A stretch of DNA of 27,296 nt from a virus (taxonomy: Duplodnaviria > Heunggongvirae > Uroviricota > Caudoviricetes): the IMG/VR virus record IMGVR_UViG_2531839440_000002; one strand, written 5' to 3'. The translations under genes and the position numbers were made by a program. Of this stretch, positions 4,752 through 27,296 are shown piece after piece; position 1 is the stretch's first letter, and each line of letters begins with the position of its first letter. The notes beneath the pieces were generated by a model. That model made no database searches and was not told where the DNA came from. It was given only the letters and a program-made list of their open reading frames with translations.

Positions 4752-4999
4752 ACAGCTCCCCGTTTATTATTTATCTCCTCAGCCAGCCGCTGTGCTTTCA
4801 GGGGATTTCGGATAACAGAAAGGCCGGGAAATACCCAGCCTCGCTTCGTAACGGAGTAGACGAAAGTGATCGTGCCTATAAGTGGCTTCACAACAAAGCA
4901 AAGGTATCCCCTGAACATGTCGGCAGCATTGTTACGGCTACTGGTGGAGTTGTGAAGGCGTACCAGATTCGCCCGGATCTTCCGAAGTTGTTTCCACAC
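4724..4999 (-). CDS. Hypothetical protein; C-terminal part resembles lambda orf60a, N-terminal part differs (possible deletion junction)
   Basis: C-terminal ...TFVYSVTKRGWVFPGLSVIRNPLKAQRLAEEINNKRGAVCTKHLPLS matches my recollection of lambda orf60a; in lambda exo follows, here it does not. Confidence 0.3.
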   Translation of the reverse strand: MWKQLRKIRANLVRLHNSTSSRNNAADMFRGYLCFVVKPLIGTITFVYSVTKRGWVFPGLSVIRNPLKAQRLAEEINNKRGAVCTKHLPLS

Positions 5000-5101
5000 A
5001 CCGAAAAGAACGCAGCTTAAATTTCCATTTCACGCTCTTTAACAATAAGCAATCAACTTAACAGACTGATTAACAGTCAATTCAAACTAAAGGAATCAAT
5101 T

Positions 5102-5641
5102 ATGCAACCAATTACATACCAACAGACTAGCGGATTTACCCCGACTGCGGTGATAAATCGTTCTCAAACAAAACAGGCGCCAGGCCACGAAAAAATCCGT
5201 GATGCCGTTCGCGCCTGGTCGGCTGCAGATAATCAGGATGTTGTTGCCGCACTCATTGTGAATGAGTATCGGGAGCTGGGCGGCGGCACCATCGATTTCC
5301 CTGATGATGTCAGCCGTGCACGCCAGAAGTTGTTCCGCTTCCTCGATAACAAATTCGATTCTGAAAAATACCGAAATAACGTGCGTGAACTGACCCCGGC
5401 AATTCTGGCGGTACTACCGCTGGAATATCGCGGCCACCTGGTTGAGCAGGATAGCTTCATGGCTCGGCTGGTTGAAATGGAAAAGGAACTCAGTGAGGCA
5501 AAGCAGGCGGTCATTCTCAACGCACCACGCCACCAGAAACTGAAGGAAATGAGTGAAGGTATTGTGTCGATGTTTCGCGTGGACCCGGATCTGGCTGGTC
5601 CATTAATGGCGATGGTTACCACCATGCTGGGGGCAATATGA
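5102..5641 (+). CDS. Hypothetical protein (179 aa) directly upstream of O, in the position cII occupies in lambda
   Basis: ATG at 5102 with AAGGA about 8 nt upstream; stop overlaps an ATG at 5638 (ATGA); no motif recognised. Confidence 0.55.
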   Translation: MQPITYQQTSGFTPTAVINRSQTKQAPGHEKIRDAVRAWSAADNQDVVAALIVNEYRELGGGTIDFPDDVSRARQKLFRFLDNKFDSEKYRNNVRELTPAILAVLPLEYRGHLVEQDSFMARLVEMEKELSEAKQAVILNAPRHQKLKEMSEGIVSMFRVDPDLAGPLMAMVTTMLGAI

Positions 5642-5727
5642 CAGGTTCAGAAATGGCGAAAGTCGGTCTGCGGGAACAGAACCGACTTTCAGGTGCAAAT
5701 CGTAACGCACTCATTACGGGAGGAATT

Positions 5728-6657
5728 ATGGCAAACACTGCTGAGATATTCAATTTTCCAGTGCCGGATGTGGCACAAAAGGAGCCGCGCGTGGCAGATC
5801 TCGATGATGGTTATACGCGCATTGCAAATGAGTTGCTGGAAGTTGTAATGCTGGCCGGATTAACACAGCACCAGCTTCTGGTCTTCCTGGCTGTCATGCG
5901 CAAAACATATGGCTTTAATAAAAAACTGGATTGGGTGAGCAACGAGCAACTTTCCGAGTTAACCGGGATATTGCCGCACAAGTGTTCTGCTGCAAAAAGT
6001 GTTCTGGTAAAGCGTGGGATTTTAATTCAGAGCGGGCGGAATATCGGCATCAATAATGTGGTCAGTGAATGGTCAACATTACCCGAATCAGGTAAGAAAA
6101 ATAAAGTTTACCTGAAAGAGGTAAATTTACCTGAATCAGGTAAGAAAAGTTTACCTAAATCAGGTAAACGCCTTTACCCGAATCAGGTAAACACAAAAGA
6201 CAAACTAACAAAAGACAATATAAAACCTTTTTCGTCAGAGAATTCTGGCGAATCCTCTGACCAGCCAGAAAACGATCTTCCTGTGGTGAAACCGGATGCT
6301 GCAATTCAGAGCGGCAGCAAGTGGGGGACAGCAGAAGACCTGACCGCCGCAGAGTGGATGTTTGACATGGTGAAGACCATCGCGCCATCAGCCAGAAAAC
6401 CGAATTTTGCAGGGTGGGCTAACGATATCCGCCTGATGCGTGAACGTGACGGACGTAACCACCGCGACATGTGTGTACTGTTCCGCTGGGCATGCCAGGA
6501 CAACTTCTGGTCCGGTAACGTGCTGAGTCCGGCCAAACTCCGCGACAAGTGGACCCAGCTCGAAATCAACCGAAACAAGCAACAGGCTGGCGTGACAGCC
6601 GGCAAACCAAAACTCGACCTGACGAACACTGACTGGATTTACGGGGTGGAGCTATGA
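5728..6657 (+). CDS. O: Replication initiator protein O (lambdoid, non-lambda allele) containing ori iterons
   Basis: N-terminus MANTAEIFNF...RVADLDDGYTRIAN aligns with recalled lambda O (MTNTAKILNF...NVADLDDGYARLSN); GGGAGGA SD before ATG 5728; alternative upstream start at 5638; internal iterons and AT-rich tract. Confidence 0.85.
   Translation: MANTAEIFNFPVPDVAQKEPRVADLDDGYTRIANELLEVVMLAGLTQHQLLVFLAVMRKTYGFNKKLDWVSNEQLSELTGILPHKCSAAKSVLVKRGILIQSGRNIGINNVVSEWSTLPESGKKNKVYLKEVNLPESGKKSLPKSGKRLYPNQVNTKDKLTKDNIKPFSSENSGESSDQPENDLPVVKPDAAIQSGSKWGTAEDLTAAEWMFDMVKTIAPSARKPNFAGWANDIRLMRERDGRNHRDMCVLFRWACQDNFWSGNVLSPAKLRDKWTQLEINRNKQQAGVTAGKPKLDLTNTDWIYGVEL
6079..6190. repeat. Origin of replication: five dyad-symmetric iterons (consensus TTACCYGAATCAGGTAA) followed by an AT-rich unwinding tract
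   Basis: Copies at 6079-6095, 6109-6125, 6127-6143, 6151-6167, 6174-6190; each half TTACCTGA is the reverse complement of TCAGGTAA; AT-rich tract 6191-6235; encodes the ESGKK repeats in O. Confidence 0.75.
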
Positions 6658-7355
6658 AAAACATCGCCGCACAGATGGTTAACTTTGACCGTGAGCAGAT
6701 GCGCCGGATCGCCAACAACATGCCGGAACAGTACGACGAAAAGCCGCAGGTACAACAGGTAGCGCAGATCATCAATGGTGTGTTCAGCCAGTTACTGGCA
6801 ACTTTCCCGGCGAGCCTGGCTAACCGGGACCAGAACGAACTGAACGAAATCCGCCGCCAGTGGGTGCTGGCTTTCCGGGAAAACGGGATCACCACAATGG
6901 AACAGGTTAACGCAGGAATGCGCGTAGCCCGTCGGCAGAATCGACCATTCCTGCCATCACCCGGGCAGTTTGTTGCCTGGTGCCGGGAAGAAGCATCCGT
7001 TAACGCCGGGCTGCCAAACGTCAGCGAGCTGGTTGATATGGTCTATGAGTATTGTCGGAAGCGTGGCCTGTATCCGGATGCAGAGTCTTATCCGTGGAAA
7101 TCAAACGCGCACTACTGGCTGGTTACCAACCTGTACCAGAACATGCGGGCCAATGCGCTTACTGATGCGGAATTACGGCGCAAGGCTGCCGATGGACTGA
7201 CTTGTATGACCGCGCGAATTAACCGTGGTGAGGCGATACCTGAACCAGTAAAACAACTTCCTGTCATGGGCGGTAGACCTCTAAATCGTGCACAGGCTCT
7301 GGCGAAGATCGCAGAAATCAAAGCGAAGTTCGGACTGAAAGGAGCAACTGTATGA
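6654..7355 (+). CDS. P: Replication protein P (DnaB helicase loader), lambda-type
   Basis: 233-aa ORF MKNIAAQMVNFDREQMRRIANNMPEQYDEKPQVQQVAQIINGVF..., recalled as near-identical to lambda P; start overlaps O stop. Confidence 0.9.
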   Translation: MKNIAAQMVNFDREQMRRIANNMPEQYDEKPQVQQVAQIINGVFSQLLATFPASLANRDQNELNEIRRQWVLAFRENGITTMEQVNAGMRVARRQNRPFLPSPGQFVAWCREEASVNAGLPNVSELVDMVYEYCRKRGLYPDAESYPWKSNAHYWLVTNLYQNMRANALTDAELRRKAADGLTCMTARINRGEAIPEPVKQLPVMGGRPLNRAQALAKIAEIKAKFGLKGATV

Positions 7356-7633
7356 CGGGCAAAGAGGTAATTATTCATTATCTGGAGACGCACAAGAGCT
7401 TCTGTGCGCAGGACGTTGCTGCGGCAACAGGTGTGACAGTAACCTGCATAAATCAGGCAGCAGCTAAAATGGCGCGGGCAGGAATCCTGGTCATTGATGG
7501 TAAGGTCTGGCGAACGGTGTATTACCGGTTCGCTACCAGAGAAGAACGGGAAGGAAAGGTGAGCACGAACCTGATTTTTAAGGAGTGCCGCCAGAGTGCC
7601 GCGATGAAGCGGGTGTTGGCGGTATATGGGTGA
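7352..7633 (+). CDS. ren: Ren-like protein (possibly truncated at C-terminus)
   Basis: 93-aa ORF starting MTGKEVIIHYLETHKSFCAQD with ATGA overlap to P, as for lambda ren; sequence becomes AT-rich immediately after its stop. Confidence 0.65.
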   Translation: MTGKEVIIHYLETHKSFCAQDVAAATGVTVTCINQAAAKMARAGILVIDGKVWRTVYYRFATREEREGKVSTNLIFKECRQSAAMKRVLAVYG

Positions 7634-7927
7634 TTAGTTATTACTTGATTTGATGGTTATCTCGAAAACATCCAATCAAATTTAATGGTTTGCTTTGTGC
7701 GGGGAACTATAACAATGTTTCTAGCTTGGTGCTGTATGAATTAGTGAATTAGTAGGGAATATATCCACACATTGATTAACACAAAAATATTTTAGATATT
7801 AAATGTAACTCAAAGGATGAGTAATAATGGTTGTGTAGCGTATAACAGGATGCTGAGGTAGTATTAAACAATGAATAAATCTGATTGACAAGCACCAGAT
7901 AATACTGCGGGTCAATCATTAGACATG

Positions 7928-7962
7928 AACGCCACTAGTTACTGAGAGTAACTAATGGCGTT
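7928..7962. repeat. Near-perfect 16-bp inverted repeat (hairpin) 3' of the HD-domain gene
   Basis: AACGCCACTAGTTACT / gag / AGTAACTAATGGCGTT with one mismatch; no clear U-tract on either strand. Confidence 0.4.
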
Positions 7963-8003
7963 GTGTTTATAGTTAAGATGTTTTTTAAAACATCAGGGGG
8001 GCT

Positions 8004-8885
8004 CTACTTGTCTTTTTTAATATGATCAATCTCATCATTAAGACATTTATCTATTTTTTTTATTAACACATTAATTTCTTCGGTGTTTTGGAGTTGAGTT
8101 GTCTTAGAAACAAAAACTCGAATAAAGAATTTAACATAGTGATAGGGTTGAAGTACATCGTTATACTTACATAAATCATTTATTGTATACTTGCCGCCTG
8201 TTTCTTTTTTTATTATTTTAGCTTGACTTGTATCGATATCTTTAAAGTTATCTTCAATCTGAAAATCAAGAACCCATTCATCTTCTTTTAAATTATCCTC
8301 AATGATTTTGTTGATTTTCTTAGATATATTTTGTTTATATTTTTTGTATCTGTTGTCGGAAATGTTAACATTAGAAAACGTGTGTTTTTTTTCATATATT
8401 TTTTTCCAAACATTTCTATCAACAATATCTTGAATTATAGCTTGAGAATTTTTATCTAATGTGTTTTTAAGAGTGTTTTCTAAAAACGTTTTGTCTGGGT
8501 TTTCACGATAAAAGTGTTTGATGGACTCAATGAGAGTGTTTTTAGATTTTAAAGAGACAACATCATCAGTTTTTTTTCTAGAACACGCTTTGTTAAGCAT
8601 CGCAGATAGTGCACGATTGGTCTTATGAAAATAAACTTGACTATAAAGCCCACTTCTTGCATTGGCAAATTCTAGTATTGAATCCATACCACTTTCTTTA
8701 TATGCCAGGTAAACACTATTTTCAACTTTCACAGGAATAAATGACATTAATAATCGTCCATAATCATAAATCCCATATTTAACGCCGGAGAAGTAGCTAT
8801 CTCTAAGTAGGTAGTCCATTCTGTCCGCATCTATAGGTGAAGATGATATGATTGAACCTAATAAAGGATATACATTTACTCCCTC
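8004..8885 (-). pseudogene. HD-domain phosphohydrolase (dGTPase/SAMHD1-like), C-terminal fragment displaced by IS1
   Basis: Frame open from 8885 to stop at 8004; contains DADRMDYLLRDSYFSG motif; in frame with the N-terminal fragment once IS1 and one duplication copy are removed. Confidence 0.75.
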
Positions 8886-8940
8886 GGTGATGCTGCCAAC
8901 TTACTGATTTAGTGTATGATGGTGTTTTTGAGGTGCTCCA

Positions 8941-9216
8941 GTGGCTTCTGTTTCTATCAGCTGTCCCTCCTGTTCAGCTACTGACGGGGTGGTGCGTAAC
9001 GGCAAAAGCACTGCCGGACATCAGCGCTATCTCTGCTCTCACTGCCGTAAAACATGGCAACTGCAGTTCACTTACACCGCTTCTCAACCCGGTACGCACC
9101 AGAAAATCATTGATATGGCCATGAATGGCGTTGGATGCCGGGCAACAGCCCGCATTATGGGCGTTGGCCTCAACACGATTTTACGTCACTTAAAAAACTC
9201 AGGCCGCAGTCGGTAA
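8941..9216 (+). CDS. insA: IS1 InsA
   Basis: 91-aa [43 protein letters not shown]..., GTG start. Confidence 0.9.
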
Positions 9217-9638
9217 CCTCGCGCATACAGCCGGGCAGTGACGTCATCGTCTGCGCGGAAATGGACGAACAGTGGGGCTATGTCGGGGCTAAATCGCGCC
9301 AGCGCTGGCTGTTTTACGCGTATGACAGGCTCCGGAAGACGGTTGTTGCGCACGTATTCGGTGAACGCACTATGGCGACGCTGGGGCGTCTTATGAGCCT
9401 GCTGTCACCCTTTGACGTGGTGATATGGATGACGGATGGCTGGCCGCTGTATGAATCCCGCCTGAAGGGAAAGCTGCACGTAATCAGCAAGCGATATACG
9501 CAGCGAATTGAGCGGCATAACCTGAATCTGAGGCAGCACCTGGCACGGCTGGGACGGAAGTCGCTGTCGTTCTCAAAATCGGTGGAGCTGCATGACAAAG
9601 TCATCGGGCATTATCTGAACATAAAACACTATCAATAA
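9135..9638 (+). CDS. insB: IS1 InsB reading frame (transposase made as InsAB' by frameshifting)
   Basis: 167-aa ORF ...[44 protein letters not shown]...; overlaps insA. Confidence 0.85.
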
Positions 9639-9653
9639 GTTGGAGTCATTACC

Positions 9654-10328
9654 TACTCCCTCAATGTTATTTTTAAAATCATATCTTTTATCAACAATTT
9701 TTATAATGCTTTCTGGATTAATAGCCGCTATGTTTTCTTTATAGACATCGTCGTCATTTGATTTATCTTGGGCTTCATTTTTTAATTCTTCAATAATTTC
9801 TTTAATAAAAATACATGATACTTGTTCGTGGGTTAACTTGTCATTATCACTTAAAGATATAATCTTATCGTATTGTTTATTTCCTTCAGTTTTGCATTTT
9901 TCTTTGAAATCTTTTACGGATATTGCAAAACTATCGAATTGGTGGGCAAGTGGGCCATGCCCAACATCGTGTAACAATGCTGCAATACGTAACTCCTGTA
10001 TAAGACTTGAAGGCATTTTTTTTATATCTAAATATAGATCAATGCCCATATTTTTTCGATTGTAAATTAGTGCATTTAAATCAATATTTTTTAATATTTC
10101 ATACGATAAATGCATTACACCGACAGAGTGTTCAAAGCGAGAGTGCATTGCAGAAGGAAATACTTTATATAGAAACGTGTTCTGCCTGATATCTCGTAGT
10201 CGTTGGAATAAAGGATGGTCAATTATCTTTTTTTCTAGCTTAGTTATTCGAATCACTCCATGTATGGGATCTAAAAACTTCCCCAGAAGTAAGTCTTCAA
10301 AGTTCTCAAGTTTGTTTTTGTTTGTCAT
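9654..10328 (-). pseudogene. HD-domain phosphohydrolase (dGTPase/SAMHD1-like), N-terminal fragment interrupted by IS1
   Basis: ATG at 10326-10328; 225 codons up to the IS1 boundary; motifs HSRFEHSVGVMHLS and LLHDVGHGPLAH; the listed ORF 9573-10328 reads 26 codons into IS1 before stopping. Confidence 0.75.
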
Positions 10329-10389
10329 GAGGCTTTCCTTTTGCTGTAGTTATAATACGAAATTTAAATAGTAATGATGTTTATAGTTT

Positions 10390-10418
10390 CAATGTGTTAT
10401 CTAATGGTTAACACATTG
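10390..10418. promoter_or_regulatory. Dyad-symmetric element CAATGTGTTA-N9-TAACACATTG upstream of the HD-domain gene; candidate operator
   Basis: Perfect 10-bp inverted repeat arms read directly, about 60-90 bp 5' of the HD gene start. Confidence 0.3.
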
Positions 10419-10687
10419 TGATGTAGCATATCAATATGGATTCATATGTTCAATTGGTCTGTGGAGTTTAGTTATGAATAAGATTGATTCTGGTAATACT
10501 TTGTAGTTTAAGCTAGAGGCGGGATTCGTGATGTTCAAATCAGTATGTAATGGAGGTTGTGCATTAGTACTTGCTGCTGGAAATTAAAAATAAAGTTGCA
10601 AGTAATCGACGTTTTCCGAGAGGAGGATGTAAGCATCGCTGACCAAAAAGTATCAACGATGCCTGTTTTGTTTTAACTACAAATTAA

Positions 10688-12190
10688 TTAAATTGCATCT
10701 GCAAACTCTGGGATTTTTCGCTCAAGTATGATTGATGAGTTGCTGTTGTCGCTTTTTTTATTTTCATGATTACGAATAGCCAATGACTCATTAAAGTCTT
10801 TTGCGACTGCTGTCTCAATAAATTCAATTTCTGAATCAGAGTGTTTTTTAACAGCTTCTTTGATCTCATCCAGAGTAACATAGAAAAACTCTTTTCTACG
10901 ATTTACAAGATTGACTCTCTTTTTATCGAAGACATCATGTAGTTCTTTTTCTAATGATGGAGCGTCCTCCGAATAAATCATGGCATGCACATCAAAAATA
11001 AAAGGAACAGATGCATCACCAAGCTCATTTACACGGTCTTGTGGATCAAGACGTCGTGTCATGCCTATTTTATAAACATTCTCCCCAAAAGAACCTATGT
11101 TCGAAATAATATAAACATGACCTTGTTTGGTTTGTTGTGCCATGGATAATGCTCTTTGATGCTTTGATTCAGCCTGCGACAAACTCTGTTCTAGTTCGGC
11201 AATGCGATTTTCGAGGCGCTGCTTCATGTCACCAGTAACTTTTTCCATTTCCTTTCTTGCAGCTTCAATTGCTTTTTTATAACGGCGCTCTTCTGCCTCT
11301 GCGTCTTGCATGGCCTTTTCTATTTCTCGTTGTGCACGCTCCTCCTCTCTCATTTGTGCCCTTATTTCTGCCTGTTCTTCTTTTTCTTTCTGTTTTTGCT
11401 CACGATATTCATGGGTAAGCCACAACTCCTCAAGTTTTTTATTAAGGTATTTAGTATTTATATATATGTGATTTTGCTCGTTTAGTTTATTTATGGCCTC
11501 AAATGCCTTTGTGATGCGTTCTTCCATTTTAGTGATATTTTTCCACGTGCAATTACTAATTGCAGCATCACATTCATTATTAAATGCTCTAGTAGTTAGC
11601 CTAATATTTCTGTCTGTCATTTTTTTACCCTCTGCTCGAGAGCCTTCAACAGTCCATTGGGTTGTGCAATATACTGCACCAGAGTGGGTTTTATCCCGCA
11701 GCATTAATTTCTGTTCATCCCTGATGGATTTTATTTTGTTTTTAAATTGCTCTGAATCTTCAAAATTAAAATGAGGTTCGTAAAATCCTAGTTCGGCTAG
11801 TTCAACATCTTCTGAATAAATAGAAATTTGCTTTACTAACTTATCATATATTTCTTTCTTCTCTTTATAAGTTCTTCTTAGTTCTTGGATTTGTTTATTG
11901 ATACCATCCATTTTTTCAATGGTGTTTGTTAGTTCATTATTGGCATTTTCTTTTACTTTTTGGGACTCTTCTTTTATAATGGAGCATTCTTGCTCTGTTT
12001 TCTCAATAAGCTTCTTACATTCCTCTTCCATATTAAAATAATCTGCAAAGCGAGATTTGTATTCTTCATTTTTTTGATTGCTATCACTTAATTCTAATTG
12101 TATTTTTTTGATGCGTTTGATTGCAGCTATATATAGAACAAGAACAACCAATAAAAATATGATTGCAAGTAATAGTGGAGTTTGAGTCAT
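10688..12190 (-). CDS. Membrane-anchored coiled-coil protein with DUF4041-like central region and C-terminal T5orf172 (GIY-YIG-like) domain; candidate defence protein
   Basis: 500 aa; N-terminal helix PLLLAIIFLLVVLVLYIAAI; long K/E-rich heptad segments; C-terminal GHVYIISNIGSFGENVYKIGMTRRLDPQDRVNELGDASVPFIFDVHAMIY...; AT-rich. Confidence 0.8.
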   Translation of the reverse strand: MTQTPLLLAIIFLLVVLVLYIAAIKRIKKIQLELSDSNQKNEEYKSRFADYFNMEEECKKLIEKTEQECSIIKEESQKVKENANNELTNTIEKMDGINKQIQELRRTYKEKKEIYDKLVKQISIYSEDVELAELGFYEPHFNFEDSEQFKNKIKSIRDEQKLMLRDKTHSGAVYCTTQWTVEGSRAEGKKMTDRNIRLTTRAFNNECDAAISNCTWKNITKMEERITKAFEAINKLNEQNHIYINTKYLNKKLEELWLTHEYREQKQKEKEEQAEIRAQMREEERAQREIEKAMQDAEAEERRYKKAIEAARKEMEKVTGDMKQRLENRIAELEQSLSQAESKHQRALSMAQQTKQGHVYIISNIGSFGENVYKIGMTRRLDPQDRVNELGDASVPFIFDVHAMIYSEDAPSLEKELHDVFDKKRVNLVNRRKEFFYVTLDEIKEAVKKHSDSEIEFIETAVAKDFNESLAIRNHENKKSDNSNSSIILERKIPEFADAI

Positions 12191-12616
12191 TCGTGCTATT
12201 CCTTACGGACAATTTAAGACGTTTTGTATTAAATCCTGTTCAATGTGTATGCGGGTGATTGCTACCGCTTACAATCTTCATAATTATCAGTTAGATAGAC
12301 TCGCTAGTAAATAATTTCATTTTTTGCAATATTCTTATTGAATATTTCAATTTATGAAATGAGCTCTTTATCCTTTCAAGGCGAAAGGTTTCTTCTTCGG
12401 AAATATTTGCTCTCGTGTGACGTATAAAGGCCTTTGATTTTTAAAAAACAGTAGGAAATAATATAGTTACAGTCGGCCTGAACACCCGGCGGTGGGGTTG
12501 CGCTAAACGGGGACGTTTATGCGCACATACAATCTAAACTCTCTTCTCCCTTCACAGATGCAGAAATGCACCTGCGATTTTTTGCATCCAACGTTTGACC
12601 TCTGCGGAGGTGAAGC

Positions 12617-13072
12617 ATGAACCTACCACAAGATGGCATCAAATTACATCGTGGCAACTTCACCGCTATCGGCCAGCAGATCCAGCCTTATCTGGAGGAC
12701 GGAAAATGCTTTCGCATGGTGCTTAAACCGTGGCGTGAGAAACGCAGTCTTTCCCAGAGTGCACTCAGCCACATGTGGTACAGCGAAATCAGTGAATACC
12801 TTATCAGCAGGGGTAAAACGTTCGCCACTCCAGCTTGGGTAAAAGATGCTCTCAAACACACATATCTCGGTTATGAAACCAAAGACCTGGTTGATGTCGT
12901 AACCGGTGATATCACCACTATCCAGTCGTTACGCCATACCTCCGACCTTGATACCGGAGAGATGTATGTCTTCCTGTGTAAGGTTGAAGCCTGGGCGATG
13001 AATATTGGCTGCCACCTGACTATTCCGCAGAGCTGCGAGTTCCAGCTGCTGCGTGATAAGCAGGAGGCGTAA
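12617..13072 (+). CDS. ybcN: YbcN-like lambdoid nin-region protein (151 aa)
   Basis: [58 protein letters not shown]... recalled as DLP12 YbcN family; GGAGG SD upstream. Confidence 0.65.
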
Positions 13073-13242
13073 TGGCTACACCGCTTATTCGTGTCATGAA
13101 CGGACACATCTACAAAATACCAAATCGTCGTAAGCGTAGGCCTGAGCTGAAACCATCCGAAATACCAACACTGCTCGGATATACCGCCAGCCTGGTTGAT
13201 AAAAAATGGTTGCGACTGGCAGCAAGGAGGAATCATGGCTGA
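13072..13242 (+). CDS. ninE: NinE-like protein (56 aa)
   Basis: ATG overlaps previous stop (TAATG); [56 protein letters not shown]; below ORF-track cutoff. Confidence 0.6.
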   Translation: MATPLIRVMNGHIYKIPNRRKRRPELKPSEIPTLLGYTASLVDKKWLRLAARRNHG

Positions 13243-13525
13243 TTTGAGAAAAGCAGCGCGTGGTCGGGAATGCCAGGTAAGAATCCCTGGCGTATGTAAT
13301 GGCAATCCTGAAACGTCTGTACTGGCACATATCCGGCTGGCTGGATTGTGCGGTACCGGTATCAAACCGCCAGACCTGATTGCCACCATTGCATGTTCTG
13401 CCTGTCACGACGAGATCGACCGTCGCACGCATTTTGTTGACGCTGGATATGCAAAAGAATGCGCGCTGGAAGGTATGGCGAGAACGCAGGTTATCTGGCT
13501 GAAAGAGGGGGTAATTAAGGCGTGA
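13235..13525 (+). CDS. ybcO: YbcO-like Cys-rich putative nuclease (DUF1364 family)
   Basis: 96 aa from [42 protein letters not shown]...; CxxxxxxxC and CSACH motifs; sits before rusA as in DLP12-type prophages. Confidence 0.65.
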
Positions 13526-13884
13526 ATACCTACAATATCACATTACCCTGGCCGCCGAGCAATAATCGCTATTACCGCCATAATCGCGGGCGCACGCACA
13601 TCAGCGCAGAGGGGCAGGCATACCGCGAAAACGTCGCCCGAATCATTAAAAACGCAATGCTGGATATCGGCCTGGCTATGCCTGTGAAAATCCGCATTGA
13701 GTGTCACATGCCGGATCGCCGTCGCCGTGACCTGGATAATCTACAAAAGGCCGCTTTTGACGCACTCACCAAAGCAGGTTTCTGGTTGGATGATGCTCAG
13801 GTCGTTGATTACCGCGTTGTGAAGATGCCGGTTGTCAAAGGTGGAAAGCTGGAACTGACCATCACTGAACAGGGAGATGAATGA
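13522..13884 (+). CDS. rusA: RusA Holliday-junction resolvase
   Basis: 120-aa [45 protein letters not shown]...[10 protein letters not shown], recalled RusA sequence. Confidence 0.85.
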
Positions 13885-14021
13885 TGTTTGAGTTTTATAT
13901 GGCAGAACTTCTTCGCCACCGCTGGATGCGCCTGCGCTTATATCGTTTCCCCGGTTCTGTTTTGACCGATTACCGAATACTGAAGAATTACGCCAAAACA
14001 CTGACAGGAGCAGGAGTATGA
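13881..14021 (+). CDS. ylcG: YlcG-like small protein (46 aa)
   Basis: [46 protein letters not shown]; overlaps rusA stop; below ORF-track cutoff. Confidence 0.5.
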
Positions 14022-14106
14022 AGTCAGAGATAACAATCAACTAATACTGTTTTGTTGATTTTTGCTTGTAATTGGCGTTCTGGTCTGAGTTTTGTGGAGT
14101 AAGTTG

Positions 14107-14484
14107 ATGCGTGATATTCAGATGGTTCTTGAGCGTTGGGGAGCGTGGGCGGCTAATAATCATGAAGATGTGACCTGGTCGTCCATTGCCGCCGGTTTTA
14201 AGGGATTAATTCCTTCAAAAGTAAAATCTCGCCCACAATGTTGTGACGATGACGCGATGATCATTTGCGGGTGCATGGCCCGTCTGAAAAAGAACAACAG
14301 CGATTTGCATGATTTATTGGTGGACTATTATGTCGGCGGCATGACTTTTATGGCGCTTGCACGTAAGCATGGGCGATCTGATTGTTGGGTTGGCAGGATG
14401 CTCCAGAAAGCTGAGGGCGTAGTGGAGGGTATGCTGATGGTGTTGGATCTCCGATTGGAGATGGATGCTGATTGTTCGAAATAA
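14107..14484 (+). CDS. Late-gene antiterminator Q (phage 82 / DLP12 QuuD-type)
   Basis: ATG at 14107 preceded by GGAG; [36 protein letters not shown]...; the ORF-track start at 14092 is a TTG. Confidence 0.75.
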
Positions 14485-14584
14485 TTAAAGGAAAAGTTGC
14501 TGTCTGATTCTCATTAGTCTAACATTTTAAATGTTGGAATCGCAACGTAGTTATTATCATATAACAGCTTGTTTCCTGATTTAG

Positions 14585-15111: not shown

Positions 15112-15141
15112 GTAAGCGTCAACGGAGCACCGTATTGACGC

Positions 15142-16754
15142 TTATTTATTGGTGAGTACTACGTTCCATGGCAGGAGTTCGTCAACACGGTTGGAGGGCC
15201 ATTCCGGCAGTACGCTCAGAATATGGCGCAGATACGCTTCCGGATCGATACCGTTCAGACGGCAGGTGCCGATCAGCCCGTACAGCAGTGCTCCACGCTC
15301 GCCGCCGTGATCGCTACCGAAGAACACGTAATTTTTCTTTCCGAGACAGACTGCACGAAGCGCTCTTTCCGCTGTGTTATTGTCCACCTCCGCCAGACCG
15401 TCATCACTGTAATAACAGAGGGCGTCCCACTGATTCAGTACATAGCTGAACGCTTCACCCAGTCTGGATTTTTTCGACAGCGTGCCATTCTTCTCCACCA
15501 TCCATTCATGCAGCGACGTCAGTAACGCTTTGCTTCGCTGCTGCCTGGCTGCAAGACGCTCTGACTCTGGTAATCCCCGTATTTCATCCTCGATGGCGTA
15601 CAGTTCACTGATTCGCTTCAGGGCTTCTTCTGCCGTCGCACTTTTGCTGCTGATGTATACATCGTGGATTTTTCTCCGGGCATGAGCCCAGCACGCAACT
15701 TCTGTCAGCGCACTACCTTCACGTTCTGCACTGAACAGCCTGTCATAACCTGTGAACGCATCCGCCTGCAGGATACCCCGGAAGGGGCGGAGGTGTTGCT
15801 CCGGGTGTTTCCCCTGCCGGTTCGATGAGTACGCGAACCAGACCGCCGGAGGAGATGACGAACCCGCATTGCGATCATCCCGGACATACGTCCAGATGCG
15901 CCCTGTTTTCGTCTTTTTCAGGCCCGGTGCCAGTACCTTTACCGGTGTGTCGTCAGTGTGAAGCTTGCGGGTATTCATCACATAACGGTACAGGGCATCA
16001 TTCAGCGGCGTCATTAACTGGCAGCACGCGTCAACCCAGTTGGAGAGTAATGCACGGCTCAGTTCGACACCCTGTCGGGCAAAGATTTCACTCTGACGAT
16101 ACAGTGGCAGGTGTTCGCAGTATTTTCCCGTTAACACGCGGGCAAGTAATCCGGGGCCCGCGATACCACGCTCTATCGGGCGGGACGGCGCCGGTGCTTC
16201 AACGATGCAGTCACATTTTGTACAGGCTTTTTTACCCGTTCTGTGCGGATCACTTTCAGGGCGCTGCTCACCAGTTCCAGTTGTTCTGCGCTGACTTCCC
16301 CCAGATAATCCAGCTCACCGCCACACTCCGGGCAACAGCTTTCTTCAGGCTCCAGGCGGTATATTTCACGGGGAAGGTGTGCCGGTAACGGACGACGATG
16401 GCGCGACTGTCGCAACTGGCGGGGAACCAGCGGGTCATCCTCACGCCCACTGTAACGATCGCTTTCCTGCTCGCGTTGTTTCAGCAGGGCTTCAGCCTGT
16501 TCAACCTCACGACGCAGTTTTTCAGAACGGGTTCCGAACAGCATCCGGCGCAGTTTTTCTATCTGAGCCCGCAGATGCTCTATTTCTCGCTCATCTTCTT
16601 CGATCTTTTCTTCGGCACGTGCCAGTGCAGAGCGCAGGAAGGCCTCCGTCTCTTCAACCAGACTCAGTTGCTGGTCTTTCTGACGGAGGGCTTCAGCCTG
16701 CTCAGAGAGCAGCCTTTCCAGCTCAGCGATGCGAATGAGGTATTTCTGACTCAT
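15142..16754 (-). pseudogene. IS66-family transposase TnpC, split into two reading frames by a frameshift
   Basis: N-terminal ORF 16173-16754 (coiled-coil plus CxxC zinc-finger region) and C-terminal ORF 15142-16137 (DDE region); span length 1613 is not a multiple of 3. Confidence 0.75.
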
Positions 16755-16784
16755 GGCCGTTTTTATAATCCGGCCCGGCGTTTT

Positions 16785-17135
16785 TTACAACATTGTCAGT
16801 GCGTTAAGGCGGGATGTTTTTGGCTGACGCCAGTCCAGCTTATCGAGGAGCATTGCCAGTTGCGAGCGGGTAATGGATATCTTACCGTCACGCACCGCAG
16901 GCCAGATAAACTGACCTTCCTCAAGGCGTTTGGTGAACAGGCACAGACCATCAGCATCAGCCCACAGGATTTTAATCGTGTCTCCCCGTCGGCCACGGAA
17001 GATAAACAGGTGACCGGAGAAGGGGTTATCATCCAGCACATGCTGTATCTGCTCCCCCAGACCGTTGAAGGATTTACGCATATCAGTAACGCCGGCAACG
17101 AGCCAGATACGGGTACCTGATGGGAGTGAAATCAT
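16785..17135 (-). CDS. IS66-family TnpB (orf2)
   Basis: 116-aa ORF MISLPSGTRIWLVAGVTDMRKSFNGLGEQIQHVLDDNPFSGHLFIFRGRRGDTIKILWAD... Confidence 0.85.
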   Translation of the reverse strand: MISLPSGTRIWLVAGVTDMRKSFNGLGEQIQHVLDDNPFSGHLFIFRGRRGDTIKILWADADGLCLFTKRLEEGQFIWPAVRDGKISITRSQLAMLLDKLDWRQPKTSRLNALTML

Positions 17136-17566
17136 CGTCCCCTCCCGGTCAGCTCACGGATCAACACCGTGAGCAGCTCTGGTGAAGGATTTTCCAGCAT
17201 CATTTTACCGTAATGGAATTCCGCATGGCAGGAAGCTGCACAAGCAACTGATAATGCCTCCGGAGCAGGAGCATCTGTAGCACAGCGCGGGGTGTCGATA
17301 AGTTCCACTGGAACCAGAGTCGGAGAGGCCGGAAAAGATTGTGATACTGTAGGGCCTACAATAGTTGGAGGCATTCTACGGGAAATACGTCCTTCTCTTT
17401 GCCAGAGGCGTAGCCATTTAAAAATCAGGTTGTTATCAACGCCATGTTCCCGGGCCAGTTGTGCAACATTGGCATTTGGTTTCGAAGCCAGTTCAACCAT
17501 ATGAAGTTTAAATTCATTAGAAAATATCCGGCGGGTTCCGGAGCGCCAGTCTGTAGGTTTATCCAT
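17132..17566 (-). CDS. IS66-family TnpA (orf1)
   Basis: ATG at 17564-17566 (track start 17569 is TTG); MDKPTDWRSGTRRIFSNEFKLHMVELASKPNANVAQLAREHGV...; overlaps tnpB start. Confidence 0.8.
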   Translation of the reverse strand: MDKPTDWRSGTRRIFSNEFKLHMVELASKPNANVAQLAREHGVDNNLIFKWLRLWQREGRISRRMPPTIVGPTVSQSFPASPTLVPVELIDTPRCATDAPAPEALSVACAASCHAEFHYGKMMLENPSPELLTVLIRELTGRGR

Positions 17567-17651
17567 CAATAGAACTCCGTCTAATTTAGAAGGAGCTCTA
17601 ATTTAGTCTGCAAGGAGCAGGTGTTACAGACGGCATTGGCTTTACGCTTAC

Positions 17652-17904: not shown

Positions 17905-18864
17905 ATGATAAAAAAACCTGTGATTGGAATCAGCGGTTGTCTGGCCGGTTCTGCTGTTCGTTTTGATGGTGGTCACAAAAGAGCTGACTTTTTAATGGAC
18001 AAATTAGTGGAATGGGTAACATTCAGACCAGTATGTCCGGAAATGGCTATAGGGCTGCCAGTTCCGCGTCCTGCTCTACGTCTTGTGCGCTCGACGCAAG
18101 GAAATATACGGATGTGTTTCAGCCACGACCAGAATGAGGATGTGACAGAGAGAATGACAGAGTTTAGTCGTTCTTATATGGACAAATTAAAGGATGTATC
18201 GGGGTTTGTGGTTTGTGCTAAATCTCCCAGCTGTGGCATGGAGCGCGTGCGTGTCTATGATGAAAATGGTAATCGAGGTCGTAAAGATGGAGTGGGACTA
18301 TTTACGAGCACTTTGATGGAAAAGTTTTCCTGGCTACCGGTTGAAGAGGATGGGCGATTACATGATCCAGTGCTTCGTGAGAATTTTGTTGAAAGAGTTT
18401 TTGCTTTGCATGAGCTCAATCACCTTTACAAGGAGAAATTATCAAGAAGAGAGTTATTAGCTTTTCATAGTCGTTATAAGCTTCAGTTGTTGGCGCATAG
18501 TCAGGCAGGCTATAAAGATATGGGACCATTTGTGGCTGCAATACACGAGTGGGCGGACCTTGAATCATACTTTGAGGTGTATCGTGATAAGCTGATGGCG
18601 ATTCTCAGAAAACCTGCATCACGTAAAAATCACACGAATGTGCTGATGCATATACAGGGGTATTTTAGTAACTACTTAAGTACACGCCAGCGTAAAGAGT
18701 TGAGCGAGGTTATACTTAACTATCGTTCTGGCACATTACCTCTTCTTGCGCCGTTGACTCTGCTGAAGCATTATCTGGGTGAGTATCCTAATGATTACTT
18801 GCTTACACAGAATTACTTCGATCCCTATCCGGACGAACTGGCTCTAAGACTGATGGTAAATTAA
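17905..18864 (+). CDS. DUF523 (TudS-like) / DUF1722 fusion protein
   Basis: 319-aa ORF; N-terminus MIKKPVIGISGCLAGSAVRFDGG with further conserved Cys (RPVCPE, CAKSPSCG) resembles DUF523; C-terminal half resembles DUF1722; GGGGGAGG SD upstream. Confidence 0.65.
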   Translation: MIKKPVIGISGCLAGSAVRFDGGHKRADFLMDKLVEWVTFRPVCPEMAIGLPVPRPALRLVRSTQGNIRMCFSHDQNEDVTERMTEFSRSYMDKLKDVSGFVVCAKSPSCGMERVRVYDENGNRGRKDGVGLFTSTLMEKFSWLPVEEDGRLHDPVLRENFVERVFALHELNHLYKEKLSRRELLAFHSRYKLQLLAHSQAGYKDMGPFVAAIHEWADLESYFEVYRDKLMAILRKPASRKNHTNVLMHIQGYFSNYLSTRQRKELSEVILNYRSGTLPLLAPLTLLKHYLGEYPNDYLLTQNYFDPYPDELALRLMVN

Positions 18865-19020
18865 TTGTATGCGATATCATCCAAAAGGATGAGTTCCTGC
18901 ATGCAGGATATTTACAATCGTAAAAACTACACTATGATACCCAGAGTGTCAGTTTGTATAAAAACTCTGTTTACGCTGAAGAAACCATTGAGATGCAACT
19001 TAAAGTTGGTGTATTTGCCC

Positions 19021-19926
19021 CTATATTTCCAGACACCTGTTATCACTTAACCCATTACTGGCCCGCTGCCGTAGATATTCCCGTGGCGAGCGATAACCCA
19101 GTGCACTATGCGGATGCCATTCGTTATAATGCTCGAACGCCTCTGCAAGATTCTTTGCTGCCGTTAACCCGTCTGGTTTGGGCATGATACTGATGTAATC
19201 ACGCTTTATCGTTTTCACGAAGCTCTCTGCTATGCCGTTACTCTCCGGACTCCGCACCGCCGTGTTCTTCGGTTCAAGTCCCAACATCCGAGCGAACTGG
19301 CGTGTTTCATTAGCCCGGTAGCATGAACCATTATCCGTCAGCCACTCCACTGGAGATGTCGGAAGCTCGCTGCCGAAGCGGCGTTCCACCGCTCCCAGCA
19401 TGACGTCCTGTACTGTTTCACTGTCGAAGCCGCCCGTAGTGACCGCCCAGTGCAGTGCCTCACGGTCACAGCAGTCCAGCGCGAACGTGACTCGCAGTTT
19501 TTCTCCGTTATCACAGCGGAACTCGAACCCGTCAGAGCACCATCGTTGATTGCTTTCTTTCACGGCCACTTTGCCAGTATGTGCCCGTTTCGATGGCGGT
19601 ACAGCGGTTTTTCGCTCAAGCAACAGCGCATTCTGGCGCATGATCCGGTAAACACGTTTGGCATTGATAGCAGGCATACCATCAAGTTCGGCCTGTCTGC
19701 GAAGCAGCGCCCATACCCGACGATAACCATACGTGGGCAGCTCTCCGATAACATGGTGTATACGGAGAAGCACATCCGTATCATCTGAGTGACGGCTGCG
19801 GCGACCATCTTTCCAGTCATCGGTTCGTCTGAGAATGACGTGCAACTGCGCACGCGACACCCGGAGACAACGGCTGACTAAGCTTACTCCCCATCCCCGG
19901 GCAATAAGGGCGCGTGCGCTATCCAC
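19021..19926 (-). CDS. insD: IS2 transposase OrfB
   Basis: 301-aa ORF with DDE-type region ...WCSDGFEF...DNGSCY... Confidence 0.9.
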
Positions 19927-20249
19927 TTTTTTGCACGCCCGTATTCAACGGCTTCTTTAAGGAGTTCATTTTCCATCGTTTTTTTGCCGAGCAGGCGCTG
20001 GAGTTCTTTAATCTGCTTCATGGCAGCAGCAAGTTCAGAGGCAGGAACGACCTGCTCTCCTGCGGCCACAGCAGTAAGACTTCCCTCCTGGTATTGCTTG
20101 CGCCAGAGAAATAACTGGCTGGCTGCCACACCGTGTTGCCGGGCAACAAGGGAGACCGTCATTCCCGGTTCAAAGCTCTGCTGAACAATAGCGATCTTTT
20201 CCTGTGTAGTACGCCGTCTGCGTTTCTCCGGCCCTAAGACATCAATCAT
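19884..20249 (-). CDS. insC: IS2 OrfA (helix-turn-helix)
   Basis: 121 aa from [47 protein letters not shown]...; the track ORF begins 15 codons upstream. Confidence 0.85.
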
Positions 20250-20551
20250 CTGTTCTCCAATGACTAGTCTAAAAACTAGTATTAAGACTATCACTTATTT
20301 AAGTGATATTGATTGTCTGGAGATTCAGGGGGCCAGTCTAGTTGGTAAACATGCCAGTCAAAATATATAATATTATGATTCCACGCAGCTATATATAATA
20401 TAACAGATTGGTTTAATAATTTGTCTTTGTGAGTTAAATACATAATTTTATACTTGTGATGCAATGAGATTTTCCTTATTGTTGAACTGGCGAATATTGA
20501 TTTTCCACCTATACTTACCTGGTGTAACCCCAATGATATCAGGTGGATAAT

Positions 20552-26712: not shown

Positions 26713-27296
26713 TGGCATTCAGAATGAGTGAACAACCACGGACCATAAAAATTTATAATCTGCTGGCCGGAACTAATGAATTTATTGGTGAAGGTGACGC
26801 ATATATTCCGCCTCATACAGGTCTGCCAGCAAACAGTACCGATATTGCACCGCCAGATATTCCGGCTGGCTTTGTGGCTGTTTTCAACAGTGATGAGGCA
26901 TCGTGGCATCTCGTTGAAGATCATCGGGGAAAAACCGTCTATGACGTGGCTTCCGGCGACGCGTTATTTATTTCTGAACTTGGCTCGTTACCGGAAAATG
27001 TCACCTGGTTATCGCCGGAAGGGGAATATCAGAAGTAGAACGGCACAGCCTGGGTGAAGGATACGGAAGCAGAAAAACTGTTCCGGAGCCGGGAGGCGGA
27101 AGAAACAAAAAACAGCCTGATGCAGGTAGCCAGTGAGCATATAGCGCCACTTCAGGATGCTGTAGATCTGGAGATCGCAACGGAGGAAGAAACCTCATTG
27201 CTGGAAGCCTGGAAAAAATATCGGGTGTTGCTGAACCGTGTTAATACAACAACTGCACCGGATATTGAATGGCCAACAGTACCCATTATCGAATAG
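26712..27296 (+). pseudogene. tfa: Tail fiber assembly protein Tfa with in-frame amber codon at 27036-27038
   Basis: [37 protein letters not shown]... then ...[22 protein letters not shown]... continuing in the same frame to a stop at 27294-27296; lambda Tfa has Trp at that position (recall). Confidence 0.75.

Follow-up and report, generated by a model that had tools for sequence, protein, structure and literature searches.

SNIPE and an IS1-interrupted, probably SAMHD1-like gene in the ren–ybcN slot of a lambda-like Escherichia coli prophage

The anti-phage system PD-lambda-1 was discovered by functional selection in Escherichia coli (Vassallo et al. 2022, PMC9519451) and owes its present name, SNIPE, to Saxton et al. 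(bioRxiv 2025; Nature 2026, PMC13190303), who describe a 500-residue inner-membrane protein with one N-terminal transmembrane helix, a DNA-binding DUF4041 domain as well as a nuclease domain of the GIY-YIG type. SNIPE works as a single gene from its native promoter: it cuts lambda DNA as this is injected, and it is associated both with ManYZ and with the tape measure protein (PMC13190303). Here we describe a SNIPE gene that stands beside a second gene, encoding an HD-domain protein, in a 27,296-nucleotide stretch of caudoviral DNA (IMG/VR record IMGVR_UViG_2531839440_000002; the whole stretch is called the window below), which is a decaying lambda-like prophage of E. coli integrated beside ybhC. 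The adjoining HD gene is unmentioned in the SNIPE papers.

Several HD-domain enzymes that hydrolyze deoxynucleoside triphosphates (dNTPs), or dNTPases, have been connected with defense. The defensive dGTPases (Sp-dGTPase) of Tal et al. (2022, preprint) were reported not to be directly alignable to SAMHD1, the homology being too limited to judge ancestry. Clover consists of the dGTPase CloA, which is Dgt-like, octameric and about 33% identical to a Dgt-type enzyme, and the nucleotidyltransferase CloB, which makes the inhibitor p3diT (Yamaguchi et al. 2025, preprint, PMC12265719). Ogmios, a cassette of the Vibrio cholerae superintegron, is a single-gene HD-domain putative dGTPase with a demonstrated anti-phage effect; it was missed by older dGTPase models and shows blastp similarity to the dGTPases of DefenseFinder across 50% of its length or more (Darracq et al. 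2024, preprint). In a 2026 preprint, an HD-domain integron cassette of V. cholerae W6G was identified as an Ogmios homologue and predicted to form a hexamer. As for SAMHD1-like defense proteins of bacteria, a review of January 2026 regards them as yet to be revealed.

We consider it likely that the AT-rich insert between the ren-like open reading frame (ORF) and ybcN of the window is a small defense island made of two independent single-gene cassettes in a hotspot, with SNIPE as one of them and the HD gene as a second, candidate defense gene. The finding is thus partly ordinary, the SNIPE half being already known and published, and partly a lead, namely a candidate defense gene of the SAMHD1 clade that is broken in the window.

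Two modules in the ren–ybcN insert

The insert is recognized by its composition. When IS1 is left out, positions 7634–12470 (4,069 bp) contain 32.5% G+C, against 51.3% in the left flank (5100–7633) and 49.2% in the right flank (12617–14500), and outside the insert every 4-kb interval of the stretch has at least 36.7%. The stop codon of the ren-like ORF (7633) is where the fall from about 51% to 25–36% begins, and the rise back lies about 120–150 bp ahead of ybcN (12617). Between 7634 and 12616, the supported ORFs of at least 50 codons are the HD gene, insA and insB of IS1, and SNIPE, and nothing else; the HD gene and SNIPE are both on the minus strand and 359 bp apart. The initial annotation, made from the sequence alone, had described an AT-rich insert between ren and the nin genes with two co-oriented genes about 360 bp apart, and the G+C values, both borders and the ORFs bear this out; it did not give the strand of the two genes.

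The 500-residue gene is SNIPE, an identity that we regard, together with the modular reading of the locus, as nearly certain. Its product matches the PADLOC (2023 models) profile PD-Lambda-1 (PDLC03976) over practically the full length (E = 1.5e-198, residues 1–485 on profile positions 1–485 of 491) and a second PD-Lambda-1 model at 3.1e-195. Pfam recognizes DUF4041 (PF13250; E = 1.2e-19, residues 198–252, above the gathering score) and, in residues 357–449, T5orf172 (4.3e-17) and MUG113 (5.3e-19), and the top hydrophobic 19-mer, LLLAIIFLLVVLVLYIAAI (residues 6–24, mean Kyte-Doolittle value 3.37), places the transmembrane helix by hydropathy only. E223, W257 and the catalytic E414 stand at the positions given in Saxton et al., the length and the E. 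coli origin agree with the published protein, and the RefSeq label now reads "SNIPE associated domain-containing protein". The transmembrane helix, coiled coils and T5orf172/GIY-YIG-like domain noticed at the outset are all present, but the gene, at first not assigned to any named system, does belong to one.

The allele of the window differs from published SNIPE by V54M and K416E, neither of which occurs in four other alleles. K416E reverses the charge at a position only two residues away from the catalytic E414, and the exact V54M/K416E variant is found in 14 contigs among public E. coli assemblies. The gene is intact in the window and its product is probably active. In other genomes SNIPE is itself split, by IS1 in Evo1 (L001 6349–7196), NZ_CP137705.1 and TB354, and by IS5 in LP-26-E1-261 and its duplicate record NZ_OZ392478.1. 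This repeated disruption of the locus by insertion sequences (ISs) may mean that these genes are costly, or simply that ISs prefer AT-rich DNA; the idea that IS1 is a sign of selection against a toxic gene was not adopted, because the preference for AT-rich DNA could explain the insertion equally well.

The boundaries of the two modules are seen by comparison with loci that carry SNIPE without the HD gene. Against one such locus (L004) the window shows a clean replacement: blastn similarity ends at 7629, and positions 7630–10625 of the window stand where L004 has 211 bp. The last codons of ren change too, so that the final codons of the ren-like ORF are unlike those of the 100-residue ren of SNIPE-only loci; the ORF, which has no Pfam match, is annotated as "hypothetical protein" in the loci with both genes versus "protein ren" in the SNIPE-only loci. 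Three configurations of the ren–ybcN slot were seen, one with SNIPE by itself, one with SNIPE and a P22AR-type gene, and one with the HD gene and SNIPE.

Possible signals are seen in both modules. The promoter-like element TTGAAC-17 nt-TGaTATGCT is the best conserved non-coding part of the HD module in four genera (five upstream regions aligned), and it is the putative promoter of the HD gene although it scores 8/12, under the cut-off of our scan. The inverted repeat downstream of the HD gene is a possible terminator that was not picked up in the terminator scan, and the hairpin at the end of the SNIPE module may be functional, as far as its sequence suggests. The promoter and terminator scan itself gave 17 sites against 18.5 expected from shuffled sequence, and single matches were not used; a scan with Rfam recognized no RNA family within the insert.

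The distribution of the two genes is also different. Of 5,426 complete E. coli genomes, 131 carry SNIPE and 21 the HD gene, and 110 of the 131 SNIPE-bearing genomes have no HD gene. In Serratia, Proteus and Enterobacter, orthologues 75% identical to the HD protein occur by themselves, and the DNA of these loci is about 80% identical to the HD module over a region that reaches 125–235 bp upstream of the ATG. In a tblastn search of SNIPE against all fetched loci, only E. coli prophage loci matched, and none of the 38–40 non-E. coli HD loci did (these come from Serratia, Proteus, Enterobacter, Klebsiella, Vibrio and 30 other species). Beyond local synteny, no conserved partner emerged when the 631 ORFs surrounding 38 HD loci were compared all against all by BLASTP. 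Co-occurrence of the two genes is confined to one E. coli prophage haplotype, in 21 genomes.

A second E. coli allele of the HD gene, with 84% protein identity, gives the same picture. Its synonymous divergence (dS) is 0.31, whereas the adjoining pair of SNIPE genes has a dS of 0.024; in this pair of loci the HD value is 13-fold above the SNIPE value, and therefore the HD cassette has been exchanged independently. The ratio of nonsynonymous to synonymous divergence of the HD gene (0.25) shows that it is under purifying selection. The pair had been put forward as a possibly uncharacterized system, with co-occurrence of the homologues as the check, but the genes are separable by distribution, boundaries and divergence.

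The HD gene and its enzyme class

In the window the HD gene is interrupted by IS1 after codon 222. The element is flanked by a 9-bp target duplication, TACTCCCTC (8877–8885 and 9654–9662), and excision of IS1 with one copy of the duplication restores, on the minus strand, an ORF of 515 codons (10328..9663 joined to 8885..8004). The repaired protein contains the motifs RFEHSVGV (residues 64–71), LLHDVGHGPLAH (118–129) and DRMDYLLRD (243–251), so reconstruction and translation agree with the initial description of an HD protein of about 515 residues split by IS1. Two residues of the repaired protein are not those of WP_074507652.1, the intact protein of strain 2018-11-3CC. Because IS1 parts the ligands H67, H120 and D121 from D243, the HD gene is inactive in the window. 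The 21 complete E. coli genomes with this HD gene all lack the insertion.

With Pfam, only a generic HD domain is recognized in the protein; of the models first named for the check, HD, DUF4041 and T5orf172 are thus matched in the insert, whereas dGTPase models give sub-threshold scores only. A phmmer search against the PDB is more informative. The best matches are the proteins of Aquifex aeolicus (2HEK, 1.6e-29), Enterococcus faecalis (EF1143, 2O6I, 6.7e-27) and Bacteroides thetaiotaomicron (2Q14), and human SAMHD1 is matched at about 1e-26, with residues 19–430 on SAMHD1 119–502 and 22–23% identity. The 30 matches at E ≤ 1 comprise 2hek, 2o6i/3irh/4lrl, 2q14 and eukaryotic SAMHD1 proteins, and there is no Dgt-type chain (Dgt, TT1383, 2PGS or 3BG2) among them. 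The matched structures are those that define the SAMHD1-like versus the Dgt-like family in Yu et al. (2021).

The predicted structure points in the same direction. An AlphaFold (AF2) model, for which an alignment of 90 homologues served as input, has a predicted local distance difference test score of 89.5 and a predicted template modeling (TM) score of 0.90, and contains an N-terminal beta-hairpin (strands 14–20 and 24–29) and a C-terminal lobe (structured region 383–515). In a Foldseek search the model was closest to tetramer structures of human SAMHD1 (E 1e-17, about 510 columns, SAMHD1 109–626, TM-scores of 0.61–0.72), and fungal SAMHD1 was likewise among the top matches.

The roles of the SAMHD1 residues used here are those seen in SAMHD1 structures and given by Yu et al. 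(2021), and conservation was counted in the same alignment of 90 homologues. The counterparts of SAMHD1 H167, H206, D207 and D311 (H67, H120, D121 and D243), of H210, H215 and H233 (H124, H129 and H167) and of R164, Y315, D319 and Y374 (R64, Y247, D251 and Y307) show no variation among the 90 sequences, and the counterpart of E234 is invariant as well. In the guanine-specific allosteric site 1, the counterparts of Q142 and R145 (Q42 and R45) are invariant in 90 of 90, and that of D137 (D37) is present in the HD protein and in 58 of the 90 homologues, with N in 21; for R451, which belongs to this site too, the invariant R379 is a candidate counterpart. In allosteric site 2, the counterparts of R333, H376 (H309) and K377 are invariant in the 90 homologues.

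In short, the HD protein is very probably a member of the SAMHD1-like branch among the dNTP triphosphohydrolases. It shares with SAMHD1, EF1143, 2HEK and 2Q14 a direct alignment of about 410 residues, the beta-hairpin, the catalytic lobe, the C-terminal lobe, the catalytic residues and the allosteric sites, and dNTPase activity, a tetramer and allosteric control may be expected of it. It differs from human SAMHD1 in having no SAM domain. Unlike a resident gene, this gene is on AT-rich mobile DNA in defense contexts. Of the first label, "dGTPase/SAMHD1-type", the second half is supported by the direct alignment and the motifs, and the first half is not, as the protein fails the Dgt-type models.

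Possible roles of the HD gene

The homologues of the HD gene are found in several defense contexts. The Proteus copy is in an island with CBASS genes that is inserted in icd, the Enterobacter copy adjoins HigBA, a V. cholerae copy (44% identical) is a superintegron cassette amid toxin-antitoxin genes, and the Psychromonas copy is directly followed by Zorya II. Also present, among the 206 ORFs that lie no more than 4 kb from 34 HD copies outside E. coli, are DarTG, PDC-M45, DRT and two SIR2-HerA systems. The label "defense-like" that both genes first received is right. In V. caribbeanicus (L015), a Dgt-type dGTPase gene (8394–9713) is located 288 bp upstream of the SAMHD1-like HD homologue (10001–11428), and two classes of dNTPase are thus arranged in tandem.

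In the mechanism that we propose, SNIPE (cassette 1, 10626–12500) is an inner-membrane nuclease that, as published, is located at the ManYZ/tape-measure injection site and cuts siphovirus DNA on entry, and cassette 2 (7630–10625), with a promoter-like region of its own, would supply a SAMHD1-like HD dNTP triphosphohydrolase. Where the gene is intact, this enzyme would most likely form a tetramer gated by nucleotides, with allosteric site 1 taking a guanine nucleotide, and would strip the triphosphate from dNTPs; lower dNTP pools would then block the replication of phages that are past entry, as a post-injection layer behind SNIPE. Such a two-layer arrangement would have arisen by accretion. 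We put the chance that the HD gene has a defense role at close to even, perhaps slightly below. The fuller proposal is more tentative: the HD gene may be a stand-alone anti-phage dNTPase of the true SAMHD1 clade, carried as a promoter-plus-gene cassette of about 2.2 kb by prophages, integrons and defense islands of the Gammaproteobacteria, which backs up SNIPE and in which an invariant Asn may shift the nucleotide range.

Several points weigh against this reading. All 21 complete E. coli genomes that carry the HD gene have SNIPE immediately beside it, which taken alone would fit a functional link. The counts of defense neighbors stand without a matched background, and one of the matches, RTasSbcB in L017, is probably merely exonuclease I. 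A protein search showed that the HD family is almost absent from deposited phage genomes, and the Gram-positive matches in that search are probably contigs of host DNA. A literature search (SAMHD1-like anti-phage proteins, and both accessions) gave no anti-phage phenotype for the family, and the family is absent from the DefensePredictor paper and from a domain-centric discovery paper, supplements included. The homologue of Klebsiella pneumoniae (P0088, in L011/L031; 44% identical; a cluster of 3,530 sequences) is located between an SDR gene and a type VI secretion cluster, a context that looks more like that of a resident housekeeping gene.

An alternative view is that the HD protein is an enzyme of dNTP-pool housekeeping or genome stability, like EF1143 and Dgt, which is carried by the prophage as a moron without any role in defense. 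SAMHD1-like dNTPases are widespread and auxiliary, and housekeeping roles have been proposed for them (Yu et al. 2021); the K. pneumoniae homologue is common and outside islands, distant dGTPase homologues are not enriched near defense genes (Tal et al.), and the HD protein is unrecognized by any hidden Markov model of a defense gene. However, the gene is patchy (21 of 5,426 E. coli genomes) and foreign in its AT-rich composition, its alleles turn over independently of the flanks, and its copies have SNIPE, Zorya II, CBASS, SIR2-HerA or a Dgt-type dGTPase for neighbors or, in one case, reside in the superintegron. We therefore consider a pure housekeeping role unlikely.

It is less probable still that the HD protein acts on a non-canonical substrate, such as ribonucleotides, modified phage nucleotides or nucleic acid, by means of a changed specificity pocket. 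L150 of SAMHD1 helps to keep out the 2'-OH. At this position the HD protein has Asn50 (codon at about 10181–10179, minus strand), which is invariant in 90 of 90 homologues, whereas SAMHD1, EF1143 and Aq_1910 have Leu, and the counterpart of SAMHD1 Q375 is Phe or Tyr in the HD homologues; substrate choice may accordingly differ, a further point against the reading that we prefer. SAMHD1-like proteins also bind oligonucleotides via their allosteric sites, with H376 highly conserved (Yu et al. 2021). On the other hand, the triphosphohydrolase center is invariant, including the counterparts of H233/E234 and Y315/D319, and the overall fold matches dNTP-bound SAMHD1.

We think it very improbable that a named system already includes the HD protein. 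The defensive dGTPases of Tal et al., CloA and Ogmios are all HD-domain dNTPases in defense. Dgt and the defensive dGTPases share with the HD protein the HD triphosphohydrolase domain, a proposed depletion of dNTPs and an occurrence as single genes in defense islands; Clover shares a nucleotide-gated dNTPase effector against phage; and Ogmios is a single HD-domain gene. Moreover, the V. cholerae homologue of the HD protein is a superintegron cassette, and it is an HD-domain integron cassette that the 2026 preprint calls an Ogmios homologue. However, Dgt-type enzymes are hexamers without the C-terminal lobe, and the identity as a Dgt-type defensive dGTPase was ruled out by scores: the PADLOC dGTPase model (2023 models) gives the HD protein a sub-threshold 15.4 bits, over residues 59–153 only, against 450 bits for the true Dgt-type member in V. 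caribbeanicus; TIGR01353 (NCBIfam) gives 21 bits, below its cut-off of 152; and BLASTP against the V. caribbeanicus Dgt-type protein gives E = 0.024 over 99 residues. Clover, a two-gene system, was ruled out because the insert contains no CloB or other nucleotidyltransferase gene and no neighbor is conserved across 38 HD loci. Ogmios is probably Dgt-like, to judge by its description (the W6G homologue being a predicted hexamer), and is of these systems the one most likely to include the HD protein after all; among the closest 120 relatives of the HD protein there is no large V. cholerae cluster. The initial thought that the pair might be uncharacterized may thus hold for the HD gene alone, but not for SNIPE.

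Scarcely credible, and already largely refuted, is a single two-gene system in which the HD protein would cooperate with the DUF4041 nuclease, for instance by serving as its sensor or regulator: the genes are co-oriented and close, with SNIPE directly upstream in every complete E. coli genome that has the HD gene, but SNIPE alone defends directly from its native promoter, most SNIPE genomes and the non-E. coli HD loci have one gene without the other, the solitary HD orthologues keep a conserved upstream region of their own, the synonymous divergence of the two genes is unequal in the one pair of loci compared, and a hairpin and a module boundary lie between them.

The surrounding prophage and the meaning of the locus

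The remainder of the window shows further signs of decay. At the junction at 4876, about 3.5 kb are absent in comparison with the 99%-identical prophage of strain 2018-11-3CC (L046 7878–11421). The absent DNA holds exo, bet, gam, kil and the gene of an S24-peptidase (CI-like) repressor, and the prophage is defective because these genes are missing. Three ISs have inserted in the 27 kb, namely IS1, an IS66-family element in the lipocalin gene downstream of Q, and an IS3-family, IS2-like element between the gene of a YbgA-family protein and a helix-turn-helix gene. The transposase of the IS66-family element is split into ORFs of 331 and 193 codons and is probably frameshifted. The YbgA-family protein contains a 2-thiouracil desulfurase domain and DUF1722, and its gene, together with the lipocalin gene, constitutes cargo between Q and the lysis genes. 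The sole Rfam match in the window is near the right end. The coordinates of these features and of those in the insert are listed in Table 1.

Table 1. Features of the insert and of the neighboring prophage DNA (positions in the window)
Feature	Position	Strand	Evidence or remark
ren-like ORF, 93 aa	7352–7633	+	Left border of insert; ORF list
HD module	7630–10625	-	2,219 bp of 31% G+C plus IS1 and duplication; blastn against L004 and L003; G+C
Inverted repeat (possible terminator)	7928–7962		16-nt arms, 94% complementary, 3-nt loop; 42 bp past HD stop
HD gene, 3' part	8004–8885	-	Codons 223–515 and stop; DRMDYLLRD with metal ligand D243, C-terminal lobe
IS1	8886–9653	+	768 bp, 53% G+C; inverted ends, target duplication
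insA	8941–9216		Within IS1
insB frame	9135–9638		Within IS1
HD gene, 5' part	9654–10328	-	Codons 1–225 including duplicated 9 bp; R64/H67, H120-D121 motif
Promoter-like element (putative)	10425–10453	-	TTGAAC-17 nt-TGaTATGCT (extended -10); about 95–125 nt upstream of HD start
SNIPE module	10626–12500	-	34.9% G+C; 97–99.9% identity with SNIPE-only and HD+SNIPE loci
Hairpin	10633–10662	-	10-bp stem, 10-nt loop, no T-tract after; 26 nt past SNIPE stop, end of SNIPE module
SNIPE (PD-lambda-1) gene, 500 aa, intact	10688–12190	-	PADLOC, Pfam, published residues, hydropathy; transmembrane helix about 6–24, coiled coil, DUF4041 198–252, coiled coil, GIY-YIG/T5orf172 357–449
ybcN	12617–13072	+	First nin-region gene; right border of hotspot
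IS66-family element	15113–17651		2.5 kb
YbgA-family gene	17905–18864
IS3-family (IS2-like) element	19011–20339		1.33 kb; ORFs of 136 and 301 aa
IS009	27055–27253		Rfam, 220.8 bits

The value of the SNIPE half of the locus is in its context: the slot is a hotspot that accepts a second cassette, and both cassettes have been hit repeatedly by ISs. If the HD gene has a housekeeping role, the locus amounts to SNIPE plus a broken moron. If the defense reading is true, a SAMHD1-clade enzyme in defense contexts would be a testable bacterial counterpart of the human restriction factor, GTP-gated allostery included.

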